The notes beneath the pieces were generated by a model. That model had not been told where the DNA came from, ran no database searches, and saw nothing but the letters and a program-made list of their open reading frames with translations. A stretch of 64,000 bases of DNA from the NCBI GenBank assembly GCA_965153355.1, contig OZ231126.1:49538001-49602000 (forward strand), given 5' to 3'. Made by a program: the position numbers and the translations under genes. Numbering within the stretch: position 1 is the stretch's first letter; each line of letters starts with the position of its first letter. This document shows positions 4,173 through 63,824 of this stretch, piece by piece. This DNA is from Flaccisagitta enflata. Lineage: Eukaryota.

Positions 4173-4291
<119 letters not shown>

Positions 4292-4929
4292 CATCACTGT
4301 CGATTTGGTTATAAAACGTGTTCGCATGTTCGCTCAATTAGAATGAGCCTAAGAAAGTGATTGATAGAAAACTAGCGTTTTCAACTAGGCCGAATCCTTC
4401 AACTTAAAGATTTTTTTCTGGAAACTCGCGCTGACCAAAAATCGTAGTATGTGGAATTACGAAAATAGCATCGGAAAAATTTTTTTGACACTACCAGTCG
4501 TCTGGGCATCCTACCGAAGGTAAAACCTATACTCAATCTGGGTCCGACCCCAATCTTGTAGCTTCGTGCCTCGGGAGTAGAATGGAAAGTGTGGAAGCAT
4601 GACAACGGGGCCTGGAAATGGCACTGGTTGAGATAAAGTGATGGTTGGGGTAGGACACGTGTTGATATGGGCCTCGTAGTGAGGCAGGTGAGCTAGTGAT
4701 ACAAGCGGTAAGTGCAAACTTGGGTAAAATCGAGCACAAGAAGAATTTTGGGACGATGATTATTAATTATCGGCATGGATGTACTTTGTCAAAAGATTTC
4801 GTGTTGTTGGAAATAAAAATGGAATCCCTAAAACTGCAATGGATATCAGATATTGGTTAATGAACAGGCTCAGTTTTAGAGGTGGCCTTAATGTAATTGC
4901 CAAAAGTATACAGAAAATACAGAAAACGA

Positions 4930-5528
<599 letters not shown>

Positions 5529-6370: not shown

Positions 6371-6546
6371 ACAGTTATAACCCGCTATCATGGATCCGAG
6401 AGTAATGGAAATCGCTATCAATGGATCTAAAAAGTTCGTCCCTTCATGTCAATATCATAAAATTTCTGTACTGCCAATAATGGAAATCTGCCTAAACGAA
6501 TAAAATTGGTTGGTCTTTTGACATCCGTTATTGCGGGGTTTATCTT
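6371..6546. mobile_element. Degenerate pogo/Tigger-like MITE related to 31761-31937
   Basis: CAGTTATAACCCGCTATCATGGA ... ATCCGTTATTGCGGGGTTTA resembles the ends and interior of the intact copy at 31761. Confidence 0.5.
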
Positions 6547-10228: not shown

Positions 10229-11515
10229 CTTTATTAGGAAAAAGTGGTAAAGGTCATTCGATTTTGAATGGAATTTGTCTGGTTTGTCAGTTCAATACAG
10301 TACTACATCACGTGTTAAGCTTTGCAGTCAATGGGCAGAAAAAATATATCAGAAAATACGGCACAAATTTGAATGTCATGCTTAGAATTTTACGCTTACA
10401 ATATTATGTGTATGAACAATTGCGATAAAAACTTTGAAAATGGTTTTACAAGTAAATAGATATTCTTTTCAGCCACTGACTAATTCAGCTTTGTTAATAC
10501 ATCGAGAAACAGATACTTAATAGGCTACATCAGGATGGAGAGGAGTGAAACAAGATTATATGAATTTCACCTCATTCGATTCATCAGTTGCAAGTTTGTG
10601 CAAGATACCTGTTTCATTGACTGAAAGATAGAAATAAATTACTTTAAGAATAAAAAGATGGTCGTTGTTCCGTACCCTACCGACGCAATTTCCACTGACT
10701 CAATTGGGCGGTAAAAAATCATCGAAATGTGGGGAATGTATTTCTAACCTGATTTGTCATTGTCAATTTCTTGTAGAACTACATCACATTTGAAGCCTCC
10801 CAGTCAATGGACAGAATATCTCCCTTCATGATATAAAATTCATCATAGGTCATTGATAAAAACATAATTTTAAAAATGATTCTAAATAATTCTAAAAATA
10901 ATTCTAAAAAAATCTAAATGATTTCTTTTTATAATAACACATTGTTTAATAGAAACTTTATTTTATAAATTATCAAAAAACAAAAAGTTAGGCTCTTTTG
11001 ATGCTGTTAAAATATTTTTACAATATAATAAAAAAAGAATTAGGTCTTAAATCAAATTGGTTTCTATTTTGATCACTGACTGATTCAACTTTGTCAATGC
11101 ACGGAGATAAATCGGTAGTTATGTTCTACATGCTATATCAGGATAATGAAGGCGAGAAAATAAATAATGATGAAATGAATATCACCTTATTATGATGATC
11201 GTCAATTGTAAGTTTTTTATCGCTAAATACCTGGTACCTAAACTGAATGATAGAAATAAATTAAGTTAATAAGATGCGCAATGGTGCATCCCGTCTCCCA
11301 CCCACCAATAAGAATGATAAATAACAAGAAAACATGGTTGAATTTTCACGAGCTGTGTTTACAAACTCGCACAAAAAACTTTACACCACCAACCAACCGA
11401 ATCACTCTTTTACTGGAGTTATGATGACGTGTTTTGACTGGGTTAGTTTGCTTCCTATTTTCAATCAAACATTTACGTTGTTCTGCGCTACCTCTATCAG
11501 ACACGTTATATTTAC

Positions 11516-11743
11516 CAGCGTTGAAGAGCGTGCCCCAAGCGCATCGTTCAAGTTTCGCGACTCCATTGTTGCAAGTGAAAAACGAGCTGCAGTCGAGTGG
11601 ATTCGGTACTGAAGCGTTGCTTGTATTACAAAGCTTGCTGAAACTGGCCCGAGTTTCCACGTTAGTCTCTTCATCCTCTCCTGCGTTTCTTCGCGTTCTG
11701 TCGGCGCAGTCCACGTTTCTTGGCCAATCGCAATTTCCAATGT
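11516..11743 (-). CDS. Peritrophin/mucin-like protein, exon 3 (end of CBM14-2, first part of CBM14-3)
   Basis: Acceptor CCATTAG|. HIGNCDWPRNVDC completes domain 2, then LCNTSNASVPNPLDCSSFFTCNNGVAKLERCAWGTLFNA. Donor G|GTAAAT, phase 1. Confidence 0.9.
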
Positions 11744-11861
11744 CTAATGGATTCAGTCAGAGAAAAAATGAGCTCCCATATAAATGGTGTATTCGATTAG
11801 TTACTTAAAAGATTCAAAATCTAAATTTGTTATTCAAAGCTGTATCTATTGTAATTTGTAA

Positions 11862-12229
11862 TTTTTTTATTATACTTTGAGGTATTTTTAGTCATTCTAA
11901 GTCATTCTAAGTCATTCTAAGTCATTCTAAGTCATTCTAAGTCATTCTAAGTCATTCTAAGTCATTCTGAGTCATTCTAAGTCATTCTAAGTCATTCTAA
12001 GTCATTCTAAGTCATTCTAAGTCATTCTTAGTCATTTTAGGTCATTCTAAGTCATTCTAAGGTATTTTAAGTCACTTAAGTCAAATAGGTCAATGTAGTC
12101 ATTTCAGTCATTTTATGTCTTTTTAAGTGATTTAAAGTCGTCTTGAGTCATTTTAAGTCATCTTGAGTCAATAATAGTCATCTTATGTTATCTATGTCCC
12201 GCACGCGACTTATAGGTGTTGGCCTTGTT
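11862..12229 (+). mobile_element. 5'-truncated HINE-like element with (AAGTCATTCT)n satellite, in intron 2
   Basis: 10-bp tandem array followed by CGCACGCGACTTATAGGTGTTGGCCTTGTT, the same 3' end as at 20377, 37328 and 52348. Confidence 0.75.
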
Positions 12230-12566
12230 TTTTTTTTTCAATTCGTCTATTAGTATTACAACTTCTTTAATCGCGTTGAGTGTTTATCAAAACGCCAATG
12301 AGTATTCTATATTGCTGTGTAAATTGTCGCATTTTATGTTGACGAAAAAAAGGAAACAGTAATAATGATGATAATTTGAGTAGGGGCAGTAAGGCTCTAA
12401 GCGCTTGTTATTGTCGATGAATTGACTGATGGGATTTCTCTACTTGCTTATTTGTTATTTGTTACTACAATCCAGACACGCAACTTTTTCCTATCATTCC
12501 AACATTTTCGTGTCACTCTAGGACAAAGCATCTGAAATGGTTTTGATGGATTACTCTCTGACTTAC

Positions 12567-12758
12567 GTGGATTGAAGACAGTTCCGGTGCTGCATCTCCT
12601 CGTTTTCGCTTCGCCGTGATCGCAGATGTAATAAGCCGCGCATTTTTCGGGATGTGGCAACAAAGCGCCGTTGCCATGGCCGAAGCAAGGGTTTGTGAAC
12701 GTCACTTCTCCACTTCCTTCCTCATCATCCTCTTCTTCTCCCTCTGTGACGTCAGTGG
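12567..12758 (-). CDS. Peritrophin/mucin-like protein, exon 2 (acidic linker, first part of CBM14 domain 2)
   Basis: Acceptor TATCATAG|, in frame as TDVTEGEEEDDEEGSGEVTFTNPCFGHGNGALLPHPEKCAAYYICDHGEAKTRRCSTGTVFNP. Donor C|GTAAGT, phase 1. Confidence 0.9.
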
Positions 12759-13147
12759 CTATGATAATAAGGGAGGCGGTAGCTATCTTAGATCAGTGTC
12801 AGTTTAAGGTAAGGTTCAATTCAGGTAAGGCCGTAAGGTTCAATTCTTACAAAGACGGTGATGTAATGCGCCGGAAAATGGACTGTGTGTCTACAGGCGC
12901 TTCATGGAAAATGTCACAAAGAGATAAGAGACTACGGAGATGTGGCGTTCGCTCTTAATTAGCATTCAAAAACCCCATGATCATGTGAAGGCAATGTGAT
13001 TTCGTTGTGACCTTGTTAAGAGGCATACAGCCATCACTAAGGGGGAGGGGGTCATTGGGCGATGGGCAAAACTTTAACCTTGTCTCGTCACCAGGAAATT
13101 TAAAACGGAAATACTCGGCGCTGCATAAAAAGCTCAGCCTCAATTAC

Positions 13148-13742
13148 CTTCGCTGGACGTGGATTGCTCCGATGTTGAAGTTGTTGATGTTGATGTTGTT
13201 GTTGGTGGTGTTGTCATTGTTGTTGTTGTGGGTAATGAGGACGTTGATGTTGTTGTTGTTGGTGGTGTTGTCGTTGTTGTTGTTGGTGGTGGTGGTGTTG
13301 TCGTTCTTGTTTCCGTCGTCGTCGTCGTTGTCGTAATCGTCGTCGTCGTCGCTGTTACTTCCGTTTTCGGCGCCGGCGTCGTTTTCACTGCGCAAACAGC
13401 TTCGTGTTCCATCGCGCATAAATTTCTTCTTGCGTCGAACTTGGTTCCGCGGCCACAACTCATCGGCACTCGAACCCCGAACACGCACACGTAAAACATA
13501 CGACAATCGCCGAAATGAGGCAGAGTCGCGCCGTGGATTTTACAGGGAAGATGGTCGTCGTCGAGGTGGTTGTGGTTGTAGTTGGTGTAGTGGTTGTGGT
13601 TGGTGTTCGTGGTGGGGGTGACGGTGGTGACGGTGCCGCCAGAGCGGCGTCGTCTTGATATTTCGGCGCCGTTCGATTCGCCGATCGAAATCACAAATAA
13701 GATAACAGTAAAGAGGAGACAGGTCAGAGTGTACGGTGCCAT
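13148..13742 (-). CDS. Peritrophin/mucin-like chitin-binding protein, exon 1 (signal peptide, CBM14 domain 1, Thr-rich mucin tract)
   Basis: MAPYTLTCLLFTVILFVISIGESNG is a hydrophobic signal peptide. The six-Cys domain is CKIHGATLPHFGDCRMFYVCVFGVRVPMSCGRGTKFDARRNLCAMEHEAVC, followed by a poly-T/P tract. Phase-1 donor AAG|GTAATT at 13148/13147. Confidence 0.9.
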
Positions 13743-14214
13743 GTTGTGAAATTTATTCTGACAGCCTATGTCGAGTTTCTTGAATATTTCAGAGAAAAAA
13801 AGTTCTTTTGTAGAAGGGCCAATAAAAATCAACCAAGCAGCATGAAATCCGATACGCGTGCATTTATTGAGAGAGCAAAATTGCCGTTTTGAGATGAGTT
13901 GAGGGGGTGGAAGGAGCACGTACAAATGCCGCTACTATGGCGATCAAACTCCTTTTATGTCACCCGAATGAATGAATGAATGAACCTTTCGTTTTCGTTA
14001 TCGATGACGAATGCCGATGGTCAATACCGATGACGATGACGATGATGATGACGATGGTGACGATGGTGATAAATGTCATATGCTTCGATAAAAGACACAC
14101 ATCGAGTCACCAACGTTAATCCGTCGACTTTTATGGTGTGTGAATGGAGTGCGAAGGTTGTTGACAGTTTTCTCTTTTGATCGGGAAACAACGACGTTGA
14201 GAAACAGGTGCCCT

Positions 14215-14629: not shown

Positions 14630-15505
14630 ATCGGAATGAAAAATGTTAAACCTACTCTACAACCCGCTTTGTCCGTCGGTCGGTCGGTCGGTTGGTCGGT
14701 CGGTTGGTCGGTCGGTCACACTTTACTTTTTTTTTTTATGATTTTATTTCTTTGACCTCACTGCTCCTGCCCATATGGTCTGGTGAACTCAAATATGGCC
14801 CCTGCCCACCCGCACGCGACTTCGGTAGCCGTGTATCCGGCCTTGTTCCTAACTACATGGTAAAAGATCTCCAAATTTTCAGGGAATTCTGGTAATATAC
14901 TGCGGTTTTGTTATACAAAACCTCAAATAGAATTTACTTTTGAAGCAGAGACAATTCTTACATATTTTCTTCTATGAAGAAACTTTCTTCATTTGCATGC
15001 CGTGTCTAAATGAAATAAGTTATAGCCCCGGGGATGGTCTCAAACGGCAGGAAATATATCATAGATTTAAAAAAATTGAAAAAATTTGGATTTTTAAAGA
15101 GGTTATGTTTGATTTGAAAAAAAAAATTCTGCTTACATGCAGACTTCAAATTCTGTAAAATTGATTAAAATCTTCATTAATATAAAAGAAATATTTTTGC
15201 CAAAACTAAAAGAGCTGATTATTTTTTCATTCGAGACCTTTTTCAGGGTTACAGCACAAAAAATTTTAAAATGGTAAGCGTATAATGACAATTTCTTTAA
15301 AAAAAAAAGTTCAATAAAATATGTGATGTTGCTCCAAAAAAATCCACTTTTTTTTAAATGATTTGCTGATCCTCGCGTATCCATGACTGAAAATTGAAGT
15401 TTTGCATAACAAAACCGCAGTATATTAAAAACATTCCCTGAAAATTTGAAGACTGTTTGCCCAGTAGTTAGGGAGTTGTAAAGGTTTAACATTTTTCAAT
15501 TCGAT
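14630..15505. mobile_element. TTAA-flanked TIR element (MITE); left TIR interrupted by a HINE
   Basis: TTAA|ATCGGAATGAAAAATGTTAAACCT ... AGGTTTAACATTTTTCAATTCGAT|TTAA. Inverted similarity resumes at 14848-14926 vs ~15395-15475. Confidence 0.65.
14655..14847 (+). mobile_element. Short HINE-like element (family A)
   Basis: ACTCTACAACCCGCTTTGTCC(GTCG)n..CCCTGCCCACCCGCACGCGACTTCGGTAGCCGTGTATCCGGCCTTGTT, near-identical to copies at 17577, 25951 and 58280. Confidence 0.8.
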
Positions 15506-17218: not shown

Positions 17219-17916
17219 CACAGCGCAATCTGTAGTGATATTAGTCCCCCGGGCTTTTCCCCCTTACAATCCCTGTTCACTTTATTTTCAAGAGTGAACT
17301 GGGGTTTGCTAAAAGATACAAAAGTCTGATCTTGGGGATCCCCCCGGGACCCGGGAAATCCCCATGGAATCCCCGGATGAAACTAATTTTCTCGTGAGTA
17401 TCATAATAACTTTAAAATTTGGTTATTTCTACTAAGGACATCAGGGCTTTTCTGCTTTTAAGAACTTTTAATTAAAAAAAACTGAACTCAATGTGGGACA
17501 TGCCCCACTTTATCCCCAGATCATTTCTTCATAAACTTTTAAAGGGGGATGTAGCCGGGGATTTCCAAACTCGGATTTTTAGTTGCATGCACGCGACTCT
17601 ACAACCCGCTTTGTCCGTTGGTTGGTCCGTCGGTTGGTCGGTCGGTTGGTCGGTCGGTCCGCCACACTTTATTTTTTTTATGATTTTATTTTTTTGACCT
17701 CAACGCTCCTGCCCAAATGGTCTGATGACCTCAAATATGGCCCCTGCCCACCTGCACGCGACTTCGGTAGCCGTGTATCCCGCCTTGTCTTTAACTGAAG
17801 ACATCAGGGCTTTTCCCCGTGGATTTCCAGACTAATTTCATTAACTGGGGACATCAGGGTTTTTCCCCGGGGGGGGGGGACTAATGTCACATTTTTCTAC
17901 TATAGATTGCGCTGTG
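17219..17916. mobile_element. Non-autonomous Transib-like element (CAC ends, 5-bp TSD)
   Basis: TGCAC|CACAGCGCAATCTGTAGT ... ACTATAGATTGCGCTGTG|TGCAC. The 5-bp direct repeat is at 17214-17218 and 17917-17921. Confidence 0.75.
17577..17790 (+). mobile_element. Short HINE-like element (family A) nested in the Transib-like element
   Basis: TTTTAGTTGCATGCACGCGACTCTACAACCCG..GCACGCGACTTCGGTAGCCGTGTATCCCGCCTTG. Confidence 0.8.
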
Positions 17917-23964: not shown

Positions 23965-25872
23965 AAAATTGAGCGGAACAAATGGTCTAGCGGGATCGTT
24001 TGAGACATCGACGTAGATGTATGAATCACGGAGTAGGATTTTCCTGAACTGTAAACTAGTCCTGGCGTCGTTTAGAAGTTGCCTAAAATCTGGATCAAGT
24101 GCCTGTTGGTGTGCCAATTCTTCCATATCAATATCATAATGGTCAACTGCGTTGATTACGGCTTGAAGTTTGGAAATTTTTGGGTTTGGAACTTTGCCGG
24201 TCTCTGGCGCTGAAACGGTAGATTTCTCGTGAACACGGACATCACCGTTGGCTTCGGCACGGCATAAACTGTCCACATACAATTTTTCAGAGCTCCGACA
24301 TTTTTTGTCACCGAGAAATCTAAGGTTTTCTGTCTGAAGTTCGGAATTTTTTTTTTGCAACTTCATCAGTCTTTATCTCCAAAACGGTAAATTTCTAATG
24401 CTTGGGGACCTCGCCATTGGCTTCAGCCTGGCACAAACTGTCAAATCAAGAATTTTCAGTGCTCAGGCATCCTTTGTCACGTAGAAATTGAGGTTTTTCT
24501 GAATTTGTGCTTAAAAATCCGGTTTTCGGCGTGCTACGCTGAAGATTTTTAGCTTCAACGCTCTGTATCTTCAAAACGGTTGAAGCGGCGTTCTTGAAAA
24601 TAGCGTAGGCAGATTCAGCAGGTCAAAATCTATCAAATTGGTCTTCTTTTGAATCCTCCAAACTCTTCTGAGAGCCCGAGATAAGTTTATTCGCCATTTT
24701 TCCCTGTTGTAATCCACTGTGCGGTTCAGATTTGAACGTTTTGGTGACATTTTCGGTTTTGTCGAAGCACTGCTCGAGAACGGGAGGGGCTAGAGGGTCG
24801 CGGATGGCCGCGTTTGTTAACCCTTTAGTTGATGTAAACGCCTGCTTAGTCTTAGGGCCCTTCTCCAAGTGGTTTGGCTGCAGCGCCTTGTCAAGTGTTT
24901 CAGTTGAAGGCGTTTTTGAGTGTTTTGAGGGACAACTCGAATTTGGCTGGCCTAAACTCTTTGAAATGGGCCTTTTTACCGTGACATCATGTGCATCAGT
25001 TGTTGCTGCAGTGACATGCTGATTTTTGAGAGGCTGGGATGCTGCTGGCGTCGACGAGGCACTTGAGAAGCTTGTTGAAGGATCCTCATCGAAATAGACA
25101 TCGAAATCAGCCAATTCTTTTTTTATATCAGCAAACATTTTCTCTGCTTCTCTCGAATGTTGTCGGAGGCGACTGGGGACGCGAAGGTGACTTTGCGTTG
25201 ACGAGAGGCTGGAGGATCTGCGGCGGATGCAGTTCTTGAAGGCTGCGAGATTGATGAGATGGTTGGTTGACTTTGGATTGGTTTCAAATGATGGCAGAAA
25301 CAAACTGATGAGATTGTAGCTGAACTTTGCAACATGTCCAAATGTTGCAAGAAGACATGACGGTCATTGGCAACTGACGAGATGTTGGAGACAGATGCTG
25401 CTGCTTTGTTGGAGAGGATCCCATTTGGCCTTGAGAGTGCATCCGCCACAAAGTTACTTTTACCCTCTAGATAGCGTATATCAGTAGTAAATTTGGCTAT
25501 CTCTGACAACTGATGTGTTTGCCTTGCTGTTGGTGCGTCAGTTTTCTTGTGGATTGAAGGCACCAAGCTTTGGTGGTCGGTATAAAGAGTAAAAGGGCGG
25601 CCTTCCACCATGTGTTTAAAATGTCGTATTGCCATGTGAGCCGCATTAAGCTCTCTGTCATAAGGACACCAGTCTTGTTGAGTGTCTGATAGCTTTTTGG
25701 ACCAAAAGGCCAACGGTTCCCATCCATGAGGGCCTCTCTGCTCAATGATAGCTCCCATCGCGACATCTGAAGCATCTGTTGTGATGGCAAGTAGGAGATT
25801 GGGGACATCAAGTGGGACATCCCAAAGAAAGCGGTTCACATCCAACATCCATCCATTAAGGATTACCATCAA
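23965..25872 (-). pseudogene. Ty3/Gypsy LTR-retrotransposon pol remnant (RNase H, long linker, pre-integrase region)
   Basis: RNase H motifs TTDASDVAMGA, WEPLAFWSKKL, YDREL.A, FTLYTDHQSL and IRYLEGKSNFVADALSRP. Downstream IDMEELAHQQALDPD..YVDVSNDPARPFVP. Frameshifted; no LTRs recognised. Confidence 0.9.
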
Positions 25873-25950
25873 AGCATTTGTACCCTGTGATGATCAAGTC
25901 AAGTTTTGTGAATGTTGCCAAACAAAGGGCGCTTTGTCGACTTCCATTTG

Positions 25951-26170
25951 AACAAGGCCGGATACACGGCTACTGAAGTCGCGTTTGGGTGGGCAGGGGC
26001 CGTATTTTAGGTCACTAGACAATGTGGGCAGGAGCAGTGAGGTCCAAGAAATAAAATCATAAAGAAAAGTAAAGTGTGACCGACCAACCAACCAACCTAC
26101 CAACCGACTGACCGACCAACCAACCAACCGACAGACAAAGCGGGTTGTAGAGTTCCGTGCACGCAACTAG
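25951..26170 (-). mobile_element. Short HINE-like element (family A)
   Basis: AACAAGGCCGGATACACGGCTACTGAAGTCGCG..(ACCR)n..GCGGGTTGTAGAGTTCCGTGCACGCAACT. Confidence 0.8.
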
Positions 26171-26304
26171 AATTTCTTCAAGGGCCCGCATCCTTTGCAG
26201 ATGCATTTGACGACTCACTGGAGGCTTTATACAACACAGTCATTTACAAAGAACCATCCATACCCAAACTGCACCACGTAATCTGAGGTGAGATTAAAAC
26301 CCGG

Positions 26305-29192: not shown

Positions 29193-29208
29193 CTTATGAG
29201 AAAGAGAA

Positions 29209-29707
29209 TAAGGCCAGATACACGGCTACCGAAGTCGTGTGTGGGGGGTGGGCAGGGGCCATATTTGAGGGCACTAGACCATTTGGGCAGGAGCTGTGAG
29301 GTCAAAGAAATAAAATCATAAAAAAAGAAAAACATGACAACCGACTGATTGACCAACCGACCGACCGGCGGATGGATAAAGGGGGTTGTAGACTGTAGAG
29401 TCGCGTGCACGCGACTAAAAAAAATCATTATTGAAACAAAGTAAAAACAAGTGACGCGGGGGTCACAATATCGTTGCGGACGGGTGGGCAGGGGCAGCCA
29501 ACCCCCAGCCTCGCCCAAACCCCCTTCCCACACACTAACATACACCCACACACAGTCAATGACAGCTGCAGCATCGTAAAATGCACGTTTCTCGCGTTTT
29601 CAACTCGAGCGTGACGGACCAACCGACCAACCAACCAACCAACGGACGGACGGACGGACGGACGGACGGACAAAGCCTCTTATAGAGTTGCGTGTCCGCA
29701 ACTAAAA
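29209..29707 (-). mobile_element. Two adjacent short HINE-like elements
   Basis: AAGGCCAGATACACGGC..AGTCGCGTGCACGCGACTAAAA (29209-29420) and AACAAGTGAC..GTTGCGTGTCCGCAACTAAAA (~29445-29707). Confidence 0.7.
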
Positions 29708-37328: not shown

Positions 37329-37394
37329 CTTTTTTTACTCTGTCTTTCTCTCTTTTTAACATTTACTATCTCCTTCTTAATTTCATTCAGTCAT

Positions 37395-37851
37395 TTTTAG
37401 TTGCGTGCTACGCGACTCTACATCCCGCTATCTCGGTCCGTTGGTCGGTCGGTCGTCGGTCGGTTGGTCCCCTTTTTACCTTTTCAGCGTTTTTTAGCTT
37501 TTTGAGCATACGACTCCTGCCCAGATGCCCTGGTGACCTTCTCCAGCACTGCTCCTGCCCACCCGCACGCAACTAGGGTAGCCGTGTATCCGGCCTTGTT
37601 TTTGGTTCATTCTTCAATTCATTCTTTTTTTCTTTCTTTTCTTTTTCGTTTTGGACACGCAACTCTATAAGAAGCTTTGTCCATTCGTCCATCCGTCCAT
37701 CTATTGGTCCGTCTGACCGTTGGTCCGTCCGTCTGTCGGACTGTCAGCACGAGTTGAAAATTGAGAAAATAAGTGTTTTAGAACATTTTTAGTTATGCAT
37801 TTCCGCCCCAGCCCACCTGTCTGCAACTGGTGGCCGTGTATCCGGCCTTGT
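37395..37851 (+). mobile_element. Two short HINE-like elements in tandem
   Basis: Both end in GCCGTGTATCCGGCCTTGTT (~37600 and ~37851) and carry (GTCG/GTCC)n tracts. Confidence 0.7.
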
Positions 37852-52348: not shown

Positions 52349-52499
52349 TCATGCGAACAGGGGAAAAATATTACGCTGATTCCTGTGACTTTTATCTGCG
52401 TGATAAGGCATTGGACAACATCCTATTGAAGCTCACCGAGATGCTGGAATGACGTAAAATTTTCTGTTTGAAGGAAAAGACAGGCAGATCAATCAATGC

Positions 52500-52676
52500 A
52501 AGGCCGGATACACGGCTACTCCAGTCGCGGGCGGGTGGGAAGGGGCCATATTTGAGGTCACTAGACCATTTGGGCAGTGAGGTCAAAGTCTAGAAAATAA
52601 AGTAAAAGTGTGACGGACCAACAGACCGACCGACCGACCAACCGACCGACAAAGTGGGAAGTCGCACGCGACTAAC
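52500..52676 (-). mobile_element. Short HINE-like element (family A)
   Basis: AAGGCCGGATACACGGCTAC..GGGGCCATATTTGAGGTCACTAGACC..(ACCG)n..GCACGCGACT. Confidence 0.75.
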
Positions 52677-54551
52677 AAGAAAATTCCTCTTCAAAAGCGC
52701 CAGACTAGCAGAATATCATCGAAATGGAGCGAATCAAGAATGTTAAAAATCGGCGTTGGGTGAAGTGGTGTGGGGAAGAACAGCAGTCTCTGGCTTCATT
52801 GATGGTAAAGATGGCATTGATGAAAAAAGCGACTTTTGCGTCGGTGAAAGTAGCCAAGGCAGTCTCAAGGATGAGGCGTCGACGATAGGAGTGGCCCAGC
52901 AGTGTGAACAGTGTGAACACTGTGGGATTGGGAAGACAGGAGTGGTAATGGCGGTAATGGTGGTGATGGTGGTAACATAGATGAAAGTAGCAAGTGAAAG
53001 TAGCCAAGGCAGTGTAAAGGATGAGGCCTCGACGGTGGGTATGGCATAGCAGTGTGGGCACAGTGGAATTGGGAAGGCGGGAGTGATAATGGTGATAGTG
53101 GGAGCATAGATGAAAGTAGCAAGTGAAAGGCAGTGTAAAGGATGAAACAGCGACGGTCGGAGTGGCGAGGCAGTGTGAGAAGGAAGAAGTGGTAAAACAG
53201 CGATGCCAGGAAGTGCCAAGGATAAGCCAAGGAAACGGAGGTATTGGCAAGGGTAGTTGAAATAAAACAGCGACAATGGTGGGAGAATGGGAGTGCTGCG
53301 GGTGATGGCAAACGATGCGGTGGAAGTGGCATGGGGGTGGTGGGTCGGTGACCAAGTAGAGGTGGCATGGTAGCGGACGCGGCGGCGGCGGCGATGCCGG
53401 CCAGTGAAAAGCAGATCGTTCAAGCGTCCTCTAAATGGGGTTCCGCACTCATTTGGGCCAAACAAACAAATCGTTACTCTGTACAAGTTAGTCGGTCCAC
53501 CACCTTTGAATAGCCACAAACGAAACTGGGAAATGATCAAACCACTCGCTTACGCCAACAATGTAAACGACGTTCATGTTTGGGGAGTCATGAAAGTAAA
53601 CTGAAGTCCTAATAGAAAATTTTGAAATGATGAAATAATCATCAATGTAAATCTGCTATTCAAATTTGTTTTCTACCATTTTTCTAAATGTATTTACCAT
53701 GTCACAATAAATCATATCGTAGATGTTTAAACTACTCTGACTGGGTATTCGCAAGCTACTATCCAGCTCGCAGATATATCTACATTGGAATGAATCATCG
53801 ATTTTGCAAGAATACCACTCCAAATCGAAAAAAAGCTACCACTTCCAGGTTAGTTCCACTTTAAAGAGCCGTTCAAACTCTTTCAAGTGCAACAAACCTC
53901 GGGTATGTGGCTCAATTTGTAAAGAAGCAGTTGTAAAAGTCAAAGTCAATGCTTTTTTCCAGATATTGATATGTCATTGCGCTAGATAGTACTGCAGAAT
54001 AGATTTTTGGAGATATGAAATTAAAGGCAAGAACTCCAAATAGAATAGTATAAAGTTATTTTGATAGTCAAGCAACTGAACATGGGCTAAAAAGTTCCAG
54101 CCGGTCAAAAGTGAATTGTGGCAACATTTGGAACGGCGCAAAAAGTTGGACGCTTTTAACATCTGGTTCCGCGTTGAACCTCGGCTTGATTTTACCTCCG
54201 GTGTGATTTCAAGTATCATTTACCACAAAACGACTTGTTTCTGTTTTGTGCGGAGGCACAAAATCAACTCAAGTTTGTCAGTTGTGGTGATTTTATAGTG
54301 TATCACGTTTTGATAGTCAGAGCTAATGCCTTAGAGCACCATTGTTTGGAAATGGCCAAGAAGGAATATCATCACTAAATTAGTAACCAATCTGTCAATG
54401 TTTTCAACTTGATGCCAAAGCGAATGATTGGCTAGCAATAAGCAAATCATCATATCAATTCAAAACAGAGTGATATGTATACATAGCTAAGAGTATTTTC
54501 AATTAAGAAGCAAGAATCTACAATTCTTAGTCGTGTGCACATGATTCTATA

Positions 54552-55039: not shown

Positions 55040-57373
55040 TATAACCCGCTATCCATCGGTCCGTCGGTCGGTCGGTCGGTCGGTCGGTCTGTGACACTTT
55101 CCTTCGATGTTCACGGGTGTATAATACATATACATATGTCACTATACCCAAACTAATCTCTGCTCCCGCCAAAATGTCTGCTGAACCTTATCACTGCCCC
55201 TGCCCGCTTGCAAGCGTGCAGGGGCAACATGATACAATATACAATTCTCTCTTATTTTCTTTCTTTTTGTTTCATTGAGCACAAAATTGTTCTCTTTTGT
55301 TCGCCTTGAAAATTGTTTTCTTTTGCTCTGCAGGCTACATTTGCCCCGTCATTGGCCTGCTTTATCACCGAAGTAACTCTTCGAACAAATTCCCGGCACT
55401 AATGAGCCGGGCAAAAGGCAGTTAGGCACATGTCTATCTTTTCCTCTCATTTGAACTTTCCTTACCCCCCCCCCCCTCTTTCCTTTTCCTGAATTTGCTC
55501 TCTTTTTTCCTTTTATCTGTTTTCTTTCATTTTATCTTTCTTCATTCTTCAGTCTCGTATCTTCACTGCAAATCACTCTGTGCTCTTCTATTTTCTGTGC
55601 TCTTCTATTTTCCTATCTGTAAGTTTATTTTCATGACTTTGCATCAAGCAGTCAGTCTCTTTGTAAGGGACAAAATCTTGCATACCCTCACAATTCCAAG
55701 CGCAAGCCCATCCTCACCATGGCGAAGTGGTCCTTGGTCTAGGAAGGGTTACTTGGGGCACTTGGGCACACCTGCCTTGTCTTGAAGGAAGAATGAGTCT
55801 TGGATATTGATGAAGTTGTATTGCATCTAGGAGAGGGAACAGGCTCGAAGTAGTTACGGTGTTGATGGTTGATAAACGGTGTTGATTATTGAAGACTACG
55901 CGGACAGCTATACTACCCTATACAGGGGCCCCAGTGATACCTCATACAATGTAAGGAAAAGGAGAGAATATGATTAATGATGCATCGGCGTATAAGAATG
56001 ACAATAAGGTCAATGATCACTGGGACTGATATTATGACAGTTAATGAGCTTACAATAATTGAAGCTATGACTACTTCACGGTAATATTCATCAGATTCTT
56101 CCATGGCATTGGTAGAGTCCAGCCATGCTACTTTTACAGTTTTTCATCCCTTACATACTTCCCCTCGTCGGCTACATACGTCCTCGGATGTAAAATTACG
56201 ACGAAACAAATACAACATGAAAAATCGGATGAAAAACATACAAGCCGAGAGGAGAAGTGACAAATTGTCTGTTTTTACTTGTCTATCAACATTTCAATTG
56301 CGTAATTCAATGTGAAAGTTCGATGAGGAGACAAAACAGCGATCCACCAGTATCCAGAGTGAAAGAGAGTAACTTATCCATCTTGACATTGTAAACGTAA
56401 GTGGCGATGTCGGATATCTCCTTGAGATGACGGAAATATCTATGAGTTTCTTTGTCTTCTTAGAATCGGTAGAAGGCTGTGAAGATGAAGATGAAGACTG
56501 CATAACCGTTGGCGACGGTAACACAGACAAAGATAGCGGCGTGCAGATATTGCCTATCTGTTGGCGACAGATAGAGCAAAAGGTGAGACGACCCGGAATA
56601 TATTGACGGCTATTGGCGACTATGACCGCCCATTGGCGAAGGACAGCCAAAGATGGGGAGAGAGAACTGGATCCAATGGCGTCCGTGATGCGTCCACGGC
56701 GCATACGAGATTTGAGACGGAGGTGGAATAGTTGCGATGTCGACCGGAAAACGTCGTCTCATTGTCGTCGTTTTCATATGTCGTCTTCGTCGTCGTCGTC
56801 TTCATCGTTGTCGTTTTCATCGTCGTCGTCGTCGTGGTTAGGGAAAGGATCAATACGAAAGAAGGTAGATTCAATGGGAAAGGAGGTAGGAGAAGATATT
56901 CTAAAATGTCTTTGAATGTTGCTGTGTATCAGTAATGGTCAGAGGGGGGGGCGTATGAGAGGGTATAAGGGAATCGCGCGGAACCAGCGTTGCGTTAAAT
57001 AAATGTGCAGGAACAACGCTTTTTGGCGTTTTAGGCGATGAATCACGGGATGGAATCGGCGTAGGATTGATGAATAAACGGGGAGGATCGGGAAACGCAT
57101 TTTGCCGAAGGGAATCGCGGAACGGAAATTGCGCGGTTAGGACAGACGGGCCAGGCCGAGATGAAAAGGGATTGCGCAGGACGGGCATCGCGCTTATATC
57201 TAAGGGGACGTAGACGTATACAGTACGTTTAGTTCAATGACGGCTTTTTTGGAGGCTCCCCTCATAGTCACACCTTTGCACAAACTCGCATAATCTATAT
57301 ATTTTCTTAAAGCTTACACTTGACTTTGTTGCCTGAAAAAATTTCAGCCATATCGGAGCAACTTTACTTTGAG

Positions 57374-57487
57374 AAAAAGAAATTCGAGGGTTTCCCCCCG
57401 GGTTTGAACTCGCGGCCTAACAAATAGAACATTTGTCATCTTGAAAAATAAAGTTCAGCGCGTTAACCGCTGGACTAAACCGCGAGC
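57374..57487 (-). promoter_or_regulatory. tRNA-like Pol III type-2 cassette in left TIR
   Basis: Minus strand: A box TAGTCCAGCGG (57477-57467), B box GAGTTCAAACC (57411-57401), T5 run (57378-57374). Confidence 0.55.
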
Positions 57488-57807
57488 ACATATACGAAGA
57501 GAATTTTCTTTATTTTAAATCCAAACTGATTGATTCGAATGAGCGCTGCCGAGTTTTGCGAGACAAACATTTCGAAAGCGATGATTCGAGACCGAGCGGT
57601 GCGGAAACCTTTCGTCTTTGAAAGCTTACCAAATCTGCTAGAATTACGATAGAAACATGCGGATTTCACCATTGGAAAGCTCTTGAGCAGCTCTATATGA
57701 TGATCATGAATATCTATCATATCCGTTATCTAAAAAAAATACGCGATTAACTTTACATCGAGCAAATTTGGTCATGAAAAAGGAAAGACTTTGCAACGGA
57801 TGCTTCT

Positions 57808-57813
<6 letters not shown>

Positions 57814-57896
<83 letters not shown>

Positions 57897-58205
57897 CGTG
57901 CGCATGTGTGTGTGTGCGTGTGTGTGTTCGTGCGCGTGTGTGTGTTTGTGCGCGCTCGTGTGTTTGTGCGCGTGTGTGTGTTCGTGCGCGTGTGTGTGTT
58001 CGTGCGTGTGTGTGTATTCGTGCGTGTGTGTGTGTGTGTTTGTGCGTGTGTGTGTGTGTGTGTTCGTGCGTGTGTGTGTGTTTGTGCGTGTGTGTGTGTG
58101 TTTGTGCGTGTGTGTGTTCATGCGTGAGCGTGCATGTTCGTGCCTATGCGTGTGTGTGCGTGTGTGTTTGTGCGTATGCGTGTGTGTGTGTATGCATGTG
58201 TGTAG
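57814..58205. repeat. (TG)n/(TGCG) compound microsatellite
   Basis: Direct reading. Confidence 0.98.
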
Positions 58206-58279
58206 GCGTTTTAATATGTAAAGAAAGAAACAGACGGACGAACGGACAAAGCCTCTTATAAAGTCAATAGTCTCCGATT

Positions 58280-58474
58280 AAACAAGGCCGGATACACGGC
58301 TACCGAAGTCGCGTGCGGGTGGGCAGGGGCCATATTTGAGGTCACTAAACCATTTGGGCAGGAGCGGTGACGTCAAAAAAATAAAATCATAAAAAAAAGT
58401 AAAGTGTGACCGACCGACCGACCTACCGACCGACGGACAAAGCGGGTTGTAGAGTCGCGTGCACGCGACTAAAA
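58280..58474 (-). mobile_element. Short HINE-like element (family A), near-consensus full-length copy
   Basis: AACAAGGCCGGATACACGGCTACCGAAGTCGCGTGCGGG ... GCGGGTTGTAGAGTCGCGTGCACGCGACTAAAA. Confidence 0.85.
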
Positions 58475-59599
58475 AGAGAAAGGGAGAAAAGCAGAACAAA
58501 AGAGAGAAAACGATAGGATGAGAGAATGAGGAAACCGGGAACACCTTTAGAGAGGAAGGAAGGAAAGAACAAAGGAAGGAAATTGAGGAAGGAAAAGAAG
58601 GAAGACGTAACCCGGGGCTACACTATTATCAGGTGGAAGGGGGTTGGGGAAGGCAGTGACTAAAATGTTAGTTTCTCACTATAGCTCGTGATATGGACCC
58701 ATGCACCCATGGAGAGGTAAACGAAGCCGCGTTAAGAGATTAATCAAAACGCGCGGTAGACAAGTGAACACTAAACGCTTCGTAGGCACACAGGCAAGTA
58801 TCCACGAAACGGATACACGGCAAGACAGTTGCACGGCTGGGCAGGGACCGTAATGCAAAAATCAAACGCACTTCAAAAATATTTGTAACCAAGCGACCAA
58901 CACAGCAAGGTGAAAGCAAGTGTTACCGACCAACAGACCAACAGACTGTTTGCTGAACGGGCGCACGAATGTCATCAATCAAAAGATTTTTTCCCCTTAT
59001 TTATGGTTGTGGACACGCAACTCTATGCGAGGCTTGGTCCGTCTGTCGGTCGGTCTGTCGGTCTGTCTGTTGGTCTGTCGGTCCATTGGTCCTTCATGGT
59101 GATTGAGTTGAAAAGTAAGAAAACGAACCTTTTCAATACATTTTGTGTATGTTTGAGTGTTAGGGGTGGGTTGGGGTGTGGATGGGGGTTGGATGCCCCT
59201 GCCCACCTGTCCGCAATGTCATTGTGACCCCGTGTCACTTGTTCATGAACGCCTTCCCCACGCTTTCTCACCCCTGTATACATCTTGTTTATAAGTCTCT
59301 GTAACTCTACCAATAAAGGCGGCTTTCGCCGACTGGAAAAAAATTGTAAACCTATTTTTTTTTCATTCAATTTTTCCCTTTAACCTTTCCTTTTTCTTTT
59401 GATTCAAACTAGCAAAAGCTCCCTCAATTACAAGCTACAACACTGCTTTTCATGCAGGCAAGCTTAGTTAAAAATCAAAACATATTTTCTTGATTAGTTT
59501 TTTTTTTTTAATTTTAAAAGAGTTTTTTATCATTTAAGCAGGATTGCTGTTTTCTCTAATCTTATATCAAAATAACATAAACAACAGGTTGCTGGCATA

Positions 59600-60040
59600 C
59601 ACTTTTTTTTTATAAGAGACAACATTTTTTGACTCAGCCTGGGTTCTTTTAAATTTTTTGCCATTTTGATGCTCAAATTTTCTTAAATTGTTCTTAATTC
59701 ATCAATGTGTAAAAAGTATGTAAATACATTATCTAGTAATGTTTTACAAATCTTCAGTAATAATGTGCTCAGTACTTACTTAAATTCAGATATCTTGCTT
59801 AATGTGACAAATGAAATAAAAAAATAATTGTTTTTCAGAAAAATTACTAATTAGAATTTGAATGATTGTAATAAAGATATTTTGACCAAATTTCCTAAAA
59901 AATTCTAAATCTGAATCTCGGCCCGGGCTTTCTCTTATTTTGTTCTTAAAATTTGGGCAAATCTTTGGCTTATGTCCCTTATAAACTGGTTTTGCATAAA
60001 AAGGAAAAAATGACTGATCTCTTATAAAAATAAAAAAGTG
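59600..60040. mobile_element. MITE with TA TSD, related to 2990-3703
   Basis: TA|CACTTTTTTTTTATAAGAGA ... TCTCTTATAAAAATAAAAAAGTG|TA. Confidence 0.75.
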
Positions 60041-61719
60041 TAGACCAAAAGGTCTCATAATGATTGCAGATCTTGTATCTCCACCTTAATCTGTACTTCA
60101 GTGATACAGATTTGCTAATTAAAAAAAATAAAAAAAAAAACAATTTATTTCGTATACTTCAAAAAGTCGAAATATATGATTTGACTTTTTTCAAAAAAAA
60201 CCGCTTATGTCTCTTGGTTGGTGGGACAGTTTCTCCGTCAGTCGGCAGTCGATGGCCCGTTTTACACATTACTGCTCTTGCCCAAGTGCTTTATTCGTTG
60301 ATATCACTGCCCCTGCCCACCGGCACGCGATTTGGGTAGCCTTGTATCCCGCCTTTGAATGGACCCACAGACTCATGGACACATGCACCCAAGCTACTAA
60401 TTTTTTTTTTTTAAATGAAAAAATGCGAGAGAGAAAAAAAAATATAGGAAATAAAAGAAAAACATTTTTTTCTTTAACATAACCCCTACCGTCACCATCA
60501 CCTCCTCCTCCTCCTCCACACAGCGGGACTTTCCCGGCCAGTCTCCGTCAGCCCAATCAGCCGACATACAAATGGACACAGCATCCTATATACATGTGTA
60601 TACGTGCGTAGGCGCACTTTTGTTTTTGGTTTTGCGCAAATATTTACCGGGTCCTCCGATTTACGTAACTGATTTTCCTCTTTTTTCTTGTTACATCTGT
60701 TGGGCTCGCAGAATTTGGCAAAACCACGCGAATGAAAAAAAAGACCTGTTCATTTATATATTCATATATATTCATATATGTTTACTGATAGAATAGACAG
60801 AAAGAACTGCTCAAACCATGCTTCTTAAGACGGCGTCCCTCCAACGGCAACATTTGTGTTTCAAAGATGGTCAAGATGGAAAAAATATATTCATTTATAA
60901 AGGAAAATAGAAAAACAAATGAATGAAAGTGATAGAGAGGGCTCAAACATAATATCAATAAGAAAATTTTGCATTTATTAAGCAAGAGGACCAAGTTTAA
61001 GCAATATTACTAAAAGAAAATTATTGAAAATTTCTATTTTTTTTGTTTGTTTTTTTTTGTCACTGACAGAGGAATGGTTGAAAATCTAAATTTGAATAGA
61101 GAATGGAAAATGAAAAAATAGTTCCTTTTCAAAATCGATCACAGAGAGAGTTGTCTTTCAAAATACAAAATTTCCCCGAGTTTCTTTTTTTTTTTAATTC
61201 CAACCTCAAAAAAAAAAAAAAAAATGTAAATAAAAATTGATTAAGAATCGTCTATTTCCTGCTTGTTTTCATGTGAATTGCTTAGTTCCAATTTCATTTT
61301 AGAATATGATAAAATTGTTTGCACAAAGAATCTTTGGGGACAATTTGTTCATTTAAAGCATTCCAGCTTCATTACTGTCCTTATAATGATGCAAAAAATA
61401 TGGTGAAACACTTAATCTTCCCTCAAAAACTTGCCGTCTTAAGTTGCGTGGACGGCGCGGCAGGAAGGGAGGAATGAAGGTGGGAAGAAAAGAATGGAGG
61501 AAGGAAAATTTTGATAGAGGGTTTTAAAAAGTGCAAAAGTTTGAGCTACCACATTAATATGAATGTCGACTGAATGAATGAATGAATATTGAATGAATGA
61601 ATATTGAATGAATGAATGAATAAATGAATGAATTTGATTTATGATTGCAAACAAGAATAAAAATGTGTGAAATTGTTAAAAACCTGCTTTGACGGATGGC
61701 AGTCAAGGTCAAATGTATG

Positions 61720-62775
61720 TTTTAATATCGAATGTTCGTTTTACTTTAGAATGATTATGTTTGAATATCAAATGTTTATGTTTTGACATTTAATATTTAT
61801 GTTTTGATATCCAATATTTATGATTCAATATCGAATGTTAATGTTTTAATATTGAATCTTTGTCTTTATATCTGATATTTGTGTTTTAATACTAAATGTC
61901 TATGTTCAATATCGAATGTTTATGTTCAATATCGAATGTTTATGTTTTGATGTCGAATGTTTATGTTTATATAATAATGTTTATGTTTATGTTTATATTG
62001 AATGTTTGTGTTTTGATATAGAATGTTTGATATCTAATATATATGTTTAGATATTGAATGTTTGTTTCAATATCAAATGGTTTTTTTTTTCAATATTGAA
62101 TGTTTACCTTTTAACATTGAATATCTATGTTCCAATATCGAATCTTTGTATCAATATTGAATGTTTATGGCTGGTATCAAACATCTGTTTTAATATCGGA
62201 TGTTTATGTTTTCATATCGAAAGTTTGTGTTTTAGTATCGAATGTTCGTGTTTTAGTATCAAATGTTATATATTTCGATATTCGATATTTCAAAATGTTA
62301 TCTATTTCGAATTCGGCATGAGTTGGCACCAACGTATCTTTTGCCAAATTTCAGAGCAGTGTCGGACGCTCTCGCTTTACTGACGGCTTTGCCTCTACCG
62401 CTATAAGACAATGGAATGACAGGCCTGATAGCATCAAGTCAACCAGTGGATTTCAAGTTTTTAAGCTAAAACTTAAAGATAATCTGCTTTCGCAGTATGG
62501 TTGATTTTTTACGGATATTTTTTACGGATTTTTACGGACTTGAAACAGTTTTGATTTACGGAGTTTTGAATTCTTATCTTTTTATGAATTTACTTTTAAA
62601 GGGACCCTGTTGGAAAAAAGTTGATTACGACTTTTACAGGCTATCCCTCGAGGCAAGCAGCTTTACAATCCCTTTTGTAATTATCTTGTTTCGTAAATAA
62701 AATTCATTCATTCATTGTTTATGTTTCAATATTGAATGTTAACATTCTAATAACAAATGTTTTTGTTTCATTTTG
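61720..62775. repeat. Degenerate ~21-bp AT-rich minisatellite (ATCGAATGTTTATGTTTTAAT)n interrupted by a LINE fragment
   Basis: Direct reading; the array resumes after 62716. Confidence 0.85.
62315..62716 (+). mobile_element. 5'-truncated LINE (CR1/L2-like) 3' end
   Basis: HELAPTYLLPNF.. then FASTAIRQWNDRPDSIKSTSGFQVFKLKLKDNLLSQYG* (stop 62502-62504), a typical ORF2 C-terminal WN..P / FK.KLK pattern. Followed by a 3' UTR, AATAAA and an (ATTC)3 tail. Confidence 0.75.
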
Positions 62776-62966
62776 AATGGTAGCGTTCTGTTTTTATTAT
62801 TTATTGTTGTGGTTGTCAATGTTGTTATTTTTGTTGTGGTAATTGAGGATGTTGTTTCTAGTATATTTCTAATTCATAAATTTCTTAATCGAATATTTTC
62901 GCGGCAAAATGATGTTCAGATTTCTGTTTTCAAAGGAAACGTTATAGAGATATTGACGGAATATTG

Positions 62967-63047
<81 letters not shown>

Positions 63048-63393
63048 CACCGTCACCGTCACCGTCACCGTCACCGTCACCGTCACCGTCACAGTCAGTG
63101 TCAGTGTCAGTATCCGCATGAACCAAATGATTCATTTTAATTAAATTGACACATGTACGTGTACTTTTACAAGATCAAAATAGGAAATCAATCATTTCAT
63201 TATGTAGAGCTTCTCATGGTCTATCTGATGGTGAAATCCGCATGCTTCTATCTTTCTTAGTTCGCGTTTGGCAACCTGTCAAAGACGAAAGGTGTTCGTC
63301 ACGAATCTCCGATTTCAAAATGTTCGTTTCGCCGTTTCGTTTGCGAAGGAAGCAAAAAGGAATTTAATCAATGACTTTACTTGGGCTGTCATT

Positions 63394-63515
63394 GCTCGCG
63401 GTTTGGTCTAGTGGTTAACGCGCTTGACATTAGTTGGAAATGTTTCTTATTGCTGGTGACATTTCTTTGTTGAGCTGCGAGTTCGAACCCGGGGGAAACT
63501 ATCGAATTTCTTTTT
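63394..63515 (+). promoter_or_regulatory. tRNA-like Pol III type-2 cassette in right TIR
   Basis: A box TGGTCTAGTGG (63404-63414) followed by TTAACGCGCTTGAC, B box GAGTTCGAACC (63479-63489), T5 run (63511-63515). Confidence 0.6.
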
Positions 63516-63824
63516 CTCAAGGTTAACATGCTCCAATTGAGCTAAAATTTTTTCAGGCAACAAAGTCAAGCATGGGCTTTAAGAAAATGTATAGATTATG
63601 ACAGTTTGTGCAAAGATGTGACTATGAGGGGAGCCTCCAAAAAAGCCGTCTTTGAACTAAACGTACTGTACGAGGGATCGTGAGAATGAACCGTAATGAG
63701 CGCCATTCAAAGATGAAGCGGCGAAGTCCAACGAGATCGTTAACGAAGAGCCGCGGATTTCAATCGGTTTTAGCGCGAGCAGGCGAAGAGTCGCAAATTT
63801 CAATTGGCTTAAGCGCAAGCAGGC

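Follow-up and report, generated by a model that had tools for sequence, protein, structure and literature searches.

An outward-facing A/B-box module, tentatively of tRNA-gene type, in both inverted arms of a non-autonomous TA-targeting transposon

Positions 57221-63668 of the window, by which we mean the whole 64,000-nucleotide stretch of DNA analysed, constitute a single transposable element whose two long inverted arms each carry A-box-like and B-box-like motifs and a T5 run, facing outward. At the level of motifs, both arms have the box order and the A-B distance of a type 2 Pol III unit. Our tentative reading, which we hold to be just short of likely, is that these motifs represent a degenerate module resembling a tRNA gene or SINE head, carried in both arms of an otherwise ordinary non-autonomous Tc1/mariner-type element. 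We infer a Pol III-type origin of the module, and we do not think that it is a uniformly selected RNA gene.

The element and its inverted arms

The element has TA on both sides, CAGT ends (termini CAGTACG...) and inverted arms (Table 1). CAGT-type tips are typical of Tc1/pogo elements. In three contigs from the DNA run X2 the left flank runs straight into the right flank, with one TA at the junction, as expected of an empty site; their loose end lies before 63669 (agreement 0.97), and 27 of 30 letters, compared by eye, match window positions 57189-57218. Because these contigs come from the same organism and hold an uninterrupted target with a single TA, 57221-63668 must be one insertion. Furthermore, the family as a whole ends sharply at 63670, with diverse loose ends behind 63670/63671, and past 63675 its summed depth (the summed word depths of contigs, which are not copy numbers) falls from 37,888 to 1,703 in run X1. 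Neither flank has another copy in the window. The cut-and-paste nature that a preliminary description had ascribed to the element is thus well supported, and we regard it as an old, gene-less, non-autonomous insertion of the TA-targeting (Tc1/mariner) type.

The left arm (57221-57703) and the right arm (63668-63197) are 73.1% alike over 494 alignment columns (E 2e-79), with an arm length of ~483 nt (~500 bp in the preliminary description). Complementarity reaches 89% over the outer 183 nt, the first 153 nt are 88% alike, and the first 60 nt are identical at 58 of 60 positions (19, 20 and 19 in successive 20-nt windows). The arm is part of a very abundant family in this marine animal, with 293, 218 and 106 contig pieces in the DNA runs X1, X2 and X3, respectively. 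Pattern scans found no relatives of the arm or cassette in viral_contigs and none of the terminal block in metagenome_contigs; a single match of the A-block pattern in metagenome_contigs lies in a bacterial coding contig of no further likeness, and we discarded it as a chance hit.

No transposase family was found by Pfam in the 16 ORFs of the element that were scanned, none of which gave a match above the cut-off; two weak sub-threshold matches were to PT repeat and DUF4231. Other copies of the family also enter (CA)n on the inner side of the right arm, with a loose end before 63108. A transposase supplied in trans, recognizing the nearly identical terminal ~60 nt, would have moved the element, whereas its ~480-nt arms are mosaics in which conserved islands alternate with rapidly changing linkers, and the GT/CA microsatellite closes them on the inner side.

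Table 1. Coordinates of the element's features in the window
Feature	Position	Strand	Remarks
Left TA target-site duplication	57219..57220	.	Empty-site paralog has one TA where the window reads TA...TA
Left inverted arm	57221..57703	+	Terminus CAGTACG...; 73% alike to right arm
Left outward unit (putative)	57374..57491	-	A box 57477-57467; internal T5 57448-57444; B box 57409-57401; T5 57378-57374
Interior	57704..63196	.	Microsatellites, 21-nt minisatellite, nested repeats; without transposase
(GT)n-rich tract, inner edge of left arm	57814..58203	+	(CA)n as mirror on the right
(CA)39, inner edge of right arm	62968..63045	+	Mirrors the left (GT)n
Right inverted arm	63197..63668	-	Arm alignment; multi-copy family
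Right outward unit (putative)	63394..63515	+	A box 63404-63414; B box 63481-63489; T5 63511-63515
Right TA target-site duplication	63669..63670	.	Flanking TA; family depth falls past 63675

Outward A/B-box units and their retention

We take the box consensuses to be TRGYNNARN(0-2)GG for the A box and GTTCRANNC for the B box, and the workable range of A-B distances is likewise our assumption. The candidate boxes read TGGTCTAGTGG (A) and GTTCGAACC (B) on the + strand in the right unit, and TAGTCCAGCGG (A) and GTTCAAACC (B) on the - strand in the left unit. In both units the terminal T5 lies 21 nt beyond the B box and ends 153 nt short of the element tip, in line with the ~150 bp given in the preliminary description, which had also put the A-B spacer at 55 and 64 nt; by our box limits the gap is 57 nt in the left and 66 nt in the right unit, with the same 9-nt difference. 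Its further claim, that A box, B box and T5 follow in order in both TIRs, describes an outward layout that we find in both arms, but it missed an extra T5 in the left unit (57448-57444), which lies between the boxes. In the right unit the first T run is the one after the B box (63511-63515). As the TTCGAA of the B box is a palindrome, the right arm also admits a weaker, inward-facing A/B reading (A 63544, B 63489, without a T run).

The two blocks are retained between the arms while the spacer is not, as had been proposed: arm-to-arm likeness is 86% in the A block (30/35) and 80% in the B block (20/25) versus 44% in the spacer (18/41), and it is 55% upstream of the A block. The arms differ at three positions in the A box and one in the B box, all of them degenerate in the assumed consensus (p about 0.04, a post-hoc hand estimate). 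Across the family, too, the blocks are kept while the spacer, after 63428 or before 63477, occurs in at least three variants, one of which contains a T4. This mosaic of conserved and divergent segments is not what neutral decay after insertion would leave, and it therefore suggests constraint on the master copies, for which transposition is the default explanation.

Accordingly, the resemblance to a Pol III unit might be accidental, and the islands might be cis-acting transposition sites that bind transposase or host factors, or might form DNA hairpins in an arm of foldback-like type. This explanation is plausible, although we hold it to be rather less than likely. Several other islands, at arm positions 341-360, 381-400 and 441-460 (16/20, 17/20 and 16/20), are as conserved as the A block and have no Pol III meaning. 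The blocks contain three palindromic hexamers (GTTAAC, TTCGAA and CCCGGG), an 8-12 bp inverted repeat (GCTCGCGG/CCGCGAG) brackets the spacer, and retention of the B box needs no Pol III explanation, since its core is palindromic and it lies inside the high-copy outer block. In addition, the density of TTCGAA in the arms is 26-fold that in the rest of the window, on small counts (3 in 955 nt versus 7 in 57.5 kb). A subterminal motif of the TTCGA type was considered and dropped, as these counts are too small to build on.

Chance also bears on this explanation, as does the lack of tRNA homology described below. A scan of both strands of the window (128 kb) with the assumed consensuses and a gap of 25-75 gave 34 A sites and 15 B sites but only two A-to-B pairs, those of the two arms; when at most one mismatch was allowed per box, the right arm was the sole pair. 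Two hundred Markov-simulated windows contained on average 0.17 pairs, or 0.10 with a T4 run, and about 8% of them had at least one cassette by chance, a rate to be read against the many windows screened. Because the arms are homologous, the two units count as one event plus retention rather than as two events.

What speaks against an accident is the close geometry of a tRNA gene, namely the box order, the gap, the T5 placed 21 nt beyond the B box and a block boundary where the unit is predicted to begin, together with the restriction of every box difference to tolerated positions. Moreover, an inner copy of the terminal site was not found when the terminal 45 nt were locally aligned to the rest of each arm (shuffle p 0.98, 0.55, 0.40 and 0.12).

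The block edge deserves separate consideration. Of 12 contig joints, seven resume at 63393-63395, where the unit is predicted to start, and such a sharp 5' edge of the A block is also what a retroposed copy would have. It could hence be argued that two free SINEs inserted, one per arm, or that two separate repeat copies happen to face each other. We consider this very improbable. The units are homologously placed, with homologous arm blocks on both sides, and in contigs of other family members the A block is continuous with inner or outer arm sequence. A free copy is absent from the window. At its end the arm has a TIR tip and a fixed TA instead of a SINE tail and variable target duplications, and the supposed SINE would contain T5 and T6 runs. 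The empty-site paralogs, finally, show one insertion bounded by both arms. We thus agree with the preliminary description that the cassette belongs to both TIRs, rather than being a free SINE that landed at this one locus.

The homologous positions of the two units rather argue for a single acquisition. Two islands and the T5 run have the layout of a tRNA-gene-type (type 2) Pol III unit facing outward; on the reading of a degenerate module, it would have entered the arm once, reached both arms when the long inverted repeat formed or was homogenised, and since then been carried along as part of the arm.

tRNA likeness, RNA folding and possible transcription

Likeness to tRNA could be detected in neither unit. 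ARAGORN with default settings called no tRNA gene in the window or in pieces of ~150 nt on their own, and Rfam, including its tRNA model, gave nothing at E<=10 on 7.5 kb and no match on 63380-63530; on 57360-57500 it gave one unrelated match of 14.7 bits, which is not to tRNA. Read from the sequence, neither the T stem nor the acceptor stem pairs in the units. That these are not tRNA genes, as had been noted from the unpaired T stem, is therefore borne out, and the tRNA covariance model gives the same answer on pieces of ~150 nt, even at E<=10. ARAGORN calls obtained at lowered thresholds were rejected, as the two arms received different strands, anticodons and introns.

The left unit has a predicted fold of -42 kcal/mol (z -4.2), and in both units the fold of the outward strand is more stable than that of the opposite strand (-42 versus -36.2 kcal/mol on the left, -33.7 versus -16.8 kcal/mol on the right). 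A consensus stem system of 18 pairs is paired in 36 of 36 cells, versus 25-44% in slid controls, and all five arm-to-arm changes within it are kept as wobble pairs; none of its 18 pairs shows a two-sided compensatory change, and the system was predicted from the same two sequences.

The preliminary description had gone on to see a working Pol III/TFIIIC cassette in both TIRs, selected for open ends, insulation or small RNAs and capable of producing ~120-nt RNAs. Motif, geometry and retention speak for such a cassette as they do for a degenerate module, and it is also in keeping with a spacer that varies from copy to copy of the family between retained blocks, and with a strand-specific fold that is stronger in the outward direction. 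We nevertheless consider it unlikely. The internal T5 of the left unit and the T4 of the family's spacer variant would shorten the RNA, and at that T5 Pol III would be predicted to stop after about 45 nt. Furthermore, in summed depth the A block attains only about one fifth of the outer block in X1 and about one third in X2 and X3. Over most of the depth carrying the outer block, the A block is either absent or less than 80% alike. In about 6% of the polyA RNA run X8 no read matched the arm, a zero that does not bear on expression. Together with the undetectable tRNA homology, these points do not sustain the claim of a cassette making ~120-nt RNAs. If the module is degenerate, as we tentatively propose, copies whose boxes are intact may still be bound by TFIIIC or yield short RNAs, of about 120 nt from arms of the right type and about 45 nt from arms of the left type.

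Relation to known elements and possible significance

In its TA duplication, TIRs, CAGT-type tips, high copy number and lack of a transposase, the element resembles non-autonomous Tc1/mariner (IS630-Tc1-mariner) elements and MITEs. It differs from these in its ~480-nt mosaic arms, which end in microsatellites and carry the A/B-box/T5 module, and no partner transposase came to light. Long inverted arms with internal conserved blocks are known from Tc1-like IR/DR and foldback elements. Tc1-like IR/DR elements repeat their terminal transposase site further in, and no such second copy was found in the arms described here.

The units share with tRNA-derived SINE heads and type 2 Pol III genes an A box, a B box, a workable distance, a T run soon after and a discrete 5' edge. 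They depart from these in having no covariance-model or cloverleaf similarity and in containing T runs, which in the left unit include a T5 between the boxes; the element, moreover, ends with a TIR and TA rather than an A-rich or LINE-type tail. A Tc1/mariner MITE carrying a nearly full-length tRNA-derived V-SINE has been described, namely MER6/MER6A (PMC6887750, excerpt). Like the element studied here on our reading, MER6 is a TA-flanked MITE of Tc1/mariner type that spreads a tRNA-derived SINE piece as a passenger; as far as the excerpt of that paper goes, however, it holds one SINE, in its interior, whose homology to a fish SINE is demonstrable, whereas the module here lies in both arms and has no demonstrable tRNA or SINE homology (PMC6887750). 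The literature searched yielded no description of a Pol III/TFIIIC unit within TIRs, and a literal sequence search of the literature yielded no match.

tRNA genes and TFIIIC sites reportedly act as chromatin barriers, for example at fission yeast centromere 1, and A/B-box sites can work through TFIIIC binding without a useful RNA. A function of this kind had been proposed for the putative arm units. It is doubtful that this abundant family keeps a working TFIIIC/Pol III unit at each inverted end and thereby holds its ends open or shields the element from silencing. If it did, very many additional TFIIIC sites and short Pol III RNAs would be scattered through the genome of this marine animal. 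A family of DNA transposons would then be a mass carrier of TFIIIC sites, and cut-and-paste elements would be tied to a Pol III-based organisation of chromatin that has so far been linked mainly to tRNA genes and SINEs. If the boxes are not used, the element would stand as a clear case of a chimeric, non-autonomous element of the ordinary kind, and also as a warning, since about one 64-kb window in twelve contains A/B-box-like motifs and a T run by chance.

A single TA-duplicating insertion of an abundant family

Two sequencing runs on DNA of the same organism (X1, X2) and one marine metagenome run (X3) supplied contigs for alignment to 63100-63810; at 80% likeness or more, 293, 218 and 106 pieces matched, respectively. 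Past 63675 the summed word depth of these contigs, which is not a copy number, drops abruptly (37,888 to 1,703 in X1; 464 to 5.5 in X3), and beyond 63670/63671 the loose ends vary widely (agreement 0.58-0.61), indicating that ...ACTG followed by TA is where family members terminate. In X2, the match of three contigs starts at 63669 and extends to the right; ahead of it stands a consensus of 30 letters (agreement 0.97), which by eye matches 57189-57218 in 27 of 30 letters. The flanks are therefore part of a different repeat; elsewhere, copies of that repeat run through without interruption and have a single TA, which shows that 57221-63668 arrived as one insertion with TA duplication, as expected of the TA-flanked cut-and-paste element of the preliminary description. 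This target DNA (56900-57220, 63669-63790) is itself repetitive, with a summed depth of 1,690-1,905 over 63676-63771 in X1; its other copies provide the empty site, and no second copy lies inside the window.

The element, flanked by TA at left and right, starts at 57221 with CAGTACGTTTAGTTCAA... and closes at 63668 with the reverse complement of the same terminus. Its arms form a single inverted match (57221-57703 versus 63668-63197; 73.1% over 494 columns, BLAST E 2e-79), and BLAST found no further copy of them in the window. The combination of TA and inverted ends typifies the IS630-Tc1-mariner group. No transposase was found in the interior, where none of the 16 scanned element ORFs exceeded the Pfam cut-off. 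This is an ordinary transposon: non-autonomous, TA-targeting and one of a very abundant family. With its inverted arms and mirrored GT/CA tracts it has the look of a large foldback-like element. A search of the arms for an inner copy of the terminal site found none, so that a Sleeping-Beauty-like IR/DR layout, which has one, is not supported.

Nested repeats and minisatellites occupy the interior. One is a ~200-nt interspersed repeat with at least ten additional copies or fragments in the window (75-86% identity), which makes it a further abundant family of short repeats in this genome. A 21-nt minisatellite of about 27 units is apparently split by a ~430-nt insert, in which an open frame (62322-62504; no match in Pfam) appears to resemble the C-terminal end of LINE ORF2.

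Features of the element and its surroundings (window numbering)
Feature	Position	Strand	Remarks
Arm pair	57219-57401 / 63488-63670		183 nt, 89% complementary (repeat finder)
Arm pair	57602-57703 / 63197-63298		102 nt, 75% (repeat finder)
Left-arm A box	57477-57467	-	TAGTCCAGCGG
Left-arm B box	57409-57401	-	GTTCAAACC
Left-arm T5	57378-57374	-	unit with an A-B gap of 57 nt
Right-arm A box	63404-63414	+	TGGTCTAGTGG
Right-arm B box	63481-63489	+	GTTCGAACC
Right-arm T5	63511-63515	+	unit with an A-B gap of 66 nt
(GT)n-rich tract	57814-58203		inward of left arm; mirrored by (CA)39
(CA)39	62968-63045		inward of right arm; mirror of (GT)n-rich tract
~200-nt repeat, nested	58281-58475		GC-rich palindromic core, then (CCGA)n-like tail
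~200-nt repeat, other copies	14654-14847, 17576-17788, 25948-26172, 29207-29421, 37394-37601, 52499-52683		plus shorter pieces
21-nt minisatellite	61709-62275, 62720-62790
~430-nt insert	62290-62715
CBM_14 frames	8301-13931	-	E 7e-09 and 4e-08
RT-RNase H fragment	25123-25893	-	RT_RNaseH, E 3.5e-23

Outward-facing A and B boxes in both arms

The A box, B box and T5 that the preliminary description had placed in each arm were recovered at its coordinates; each T5 follows its B box by 21 nt and lies 153 nt short of the tip. Under the strict textbook consensus, with at most one mismatch per box, the right arm is the sole A-to-B pair on both window strands; under a consensus that allows known degenerate positions, 34 A sites and 15 B sites yield exactly two A-to-B pairs in the window, namely the two arms. 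All four arm-to-arm box differences (three in the A box, one in the B box) fall at degenerate positions (p about 0.04, a post-hoc hand estimate). Against a Pol III reading, however, at least one A-B-T4 cassette arises by chance in about 8% of simulated windows and the scan spans many windows. Likewise, TTCGAA inside the B box is palindromic, and the right arm permits a weaker inward-facing reading without a T run, from an A box at 63544 to a B box at 63489; the family majority departs from the window sequence at 63544 and at 63535, which weakens this inward A box further. The preliminary description also overlooked an additional T5 between the left boxes (57448-57444), and one family spacer variant contains a T4. 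Pol III stops at T runs, so left-type units are predicted to yield ~45 nt rather than ~115 nt, which also weakens a Pol III reading.

That these are not tRNA genes was confirmed: ARAGORN found none in the window, even with introns allowed at default thresholds, and at lowered thresholds its calls were inconsistent between arms; the acceptor and T stems are unpaired. Rfam gave ten matches on 7.5 kb at E<=10, none relevant and none in the cassette, none on 63380-63530 alone, and a single unrelated match (14.7 bits) on 57360-57500. tRNA ancestry is thus not visible to these tools, which also counts against a Pol III reading. As RNA, the outward strand folds at -42 kcal/mol (z -4.2) on the left and -33.7 (z -1.6) on the right, and the complement at -36.2 (z -3.7) and -16.8 (z -0.2). 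Common to both units is a stem, at most 12 pairs long, in which GCUCGCGG... pairs with ...CCGCGAG and which closes a small hairpin spanning the A box; each spacer folds its own hairpin, unrelated in sequence between arms. For 18 named pairs, 36 of 36 cells pair, versus 25-44% when slid; all five arm-to-arm stem changes are retained as wobble pairs, with no two-sided changes. The fold leans weakly toward a strand-specific outward RNA or a single-strand structure, since it is derived from the same two arm sequences on which it is tested.

Arm conservation and origin of the units

Identity between the arms is a mosaic: 135/153 (88%) from tip to T run, 24/27 (89%) in the T run and hairpin, 20/25 (80%) in the B block, 18/41 (44%) in the spacer, 30/35 (86%) in the A block (the island around the A box), 60/110 (55%) in the stretch upstream of the unit and 77/110 (70%) in the inner block. 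The boxes are therefore retained while the spacer differs, as originally noted. Such a mosaic is incompatible with even post-insertion decay, so the master copies must already have had arms that differed likewise. Three further islands, at arm positions 341-360, 381-400 and 441-460 (16/20, 17/20 and 16/20 identical), mean that the A block is not the sole conserved one, which weakens a Pol III reading; nearly as probable as the favored reading is that the blocks are cis sites for transposition, their likeness to Pol III boxes being coincidental.

Past 63428, A-block contigs part into two or more different spacers, of which one is plainly of left-arm type; further contigs join ahead of 63477 out of a third spacer, and 7 of 12 contig joints resume at 63393-63395, the predicted unit start. 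In contig records 14, 15 and 20, other copies carry the cassette or A block attached to arm sequence. With these copies and the homologous positions, the cassette is a family feature of both arms, rather than a free SINE pasted at one locus, and two independent SINE insertions, one per arm, are highly improbable. In summed word depth, which is not a copy number, the A block lies below the outer block, which includes the B-box core, in X1 (5,076-8,227 versus 24,055-58,201), X2 (3,378-4,449 versus 7,276-13,794) and X3 (222-236 versus 376-809), which again weakens a Pol III reading. This is partly expected because both arm types map onto the outer block; even allowing for that, many copies lack an A block 80% alike.

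We tentatively favor the units being a captured, degenerate tRNA- or SINE-head-like module present in each arm; some copies of it may still be bound or transcribed. The selected Pol III/TFIIIC cassette of the preliminary description seems unlikely. Barriers dependent on TFIIIC are known from tRNA genes. No description of a DNA transposon with a Pol III unit in each of its TIRs appeared in the literature searched, including by literal sequence. The nearest precedent, MER6/MER6A, is a Tc1/mariner MITE flanked by TA, which has spread a tRNA-derived V-SINE of nearly full length (PMC6887750); there the SINE is located in the interior, whereas the module here is in both arms. Pattern scans of viral and metagenome contigs for arm and cassette gave no relatives, a lone bacterial metagenome match being rejected as chance.

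Surroundings and related sequences

The window is eukaryotic and microsatellite-rich, with fragments of chitin-binding genes and an RNase H of retroelement type. Several open frames with peritrophin-A (CBM_14) domains adjoin long Ser/Thr/Pro/Lys-rich repeats, like a mucin-like peritrophin gene, and the RT-RNase H fragment is a piece of a decayed LTR-type element. X1 record 7 (490 nt) and X3 record 21 (717 nt) match solely an internal 148-nt stretch of the outer arm (63502-63649), with 14 differing letters, and to either side they continue differently from the window; possibly a related family has just this segment in common. Marine or seawater metagenome runs X3-X7 contain parts of this sequence, and X3 includes both of the arm pieces together with a piece of flank (63674-63782, four other letters), so that DNA of Flaccisagitta enflata or a close relative is present in plankton samples.
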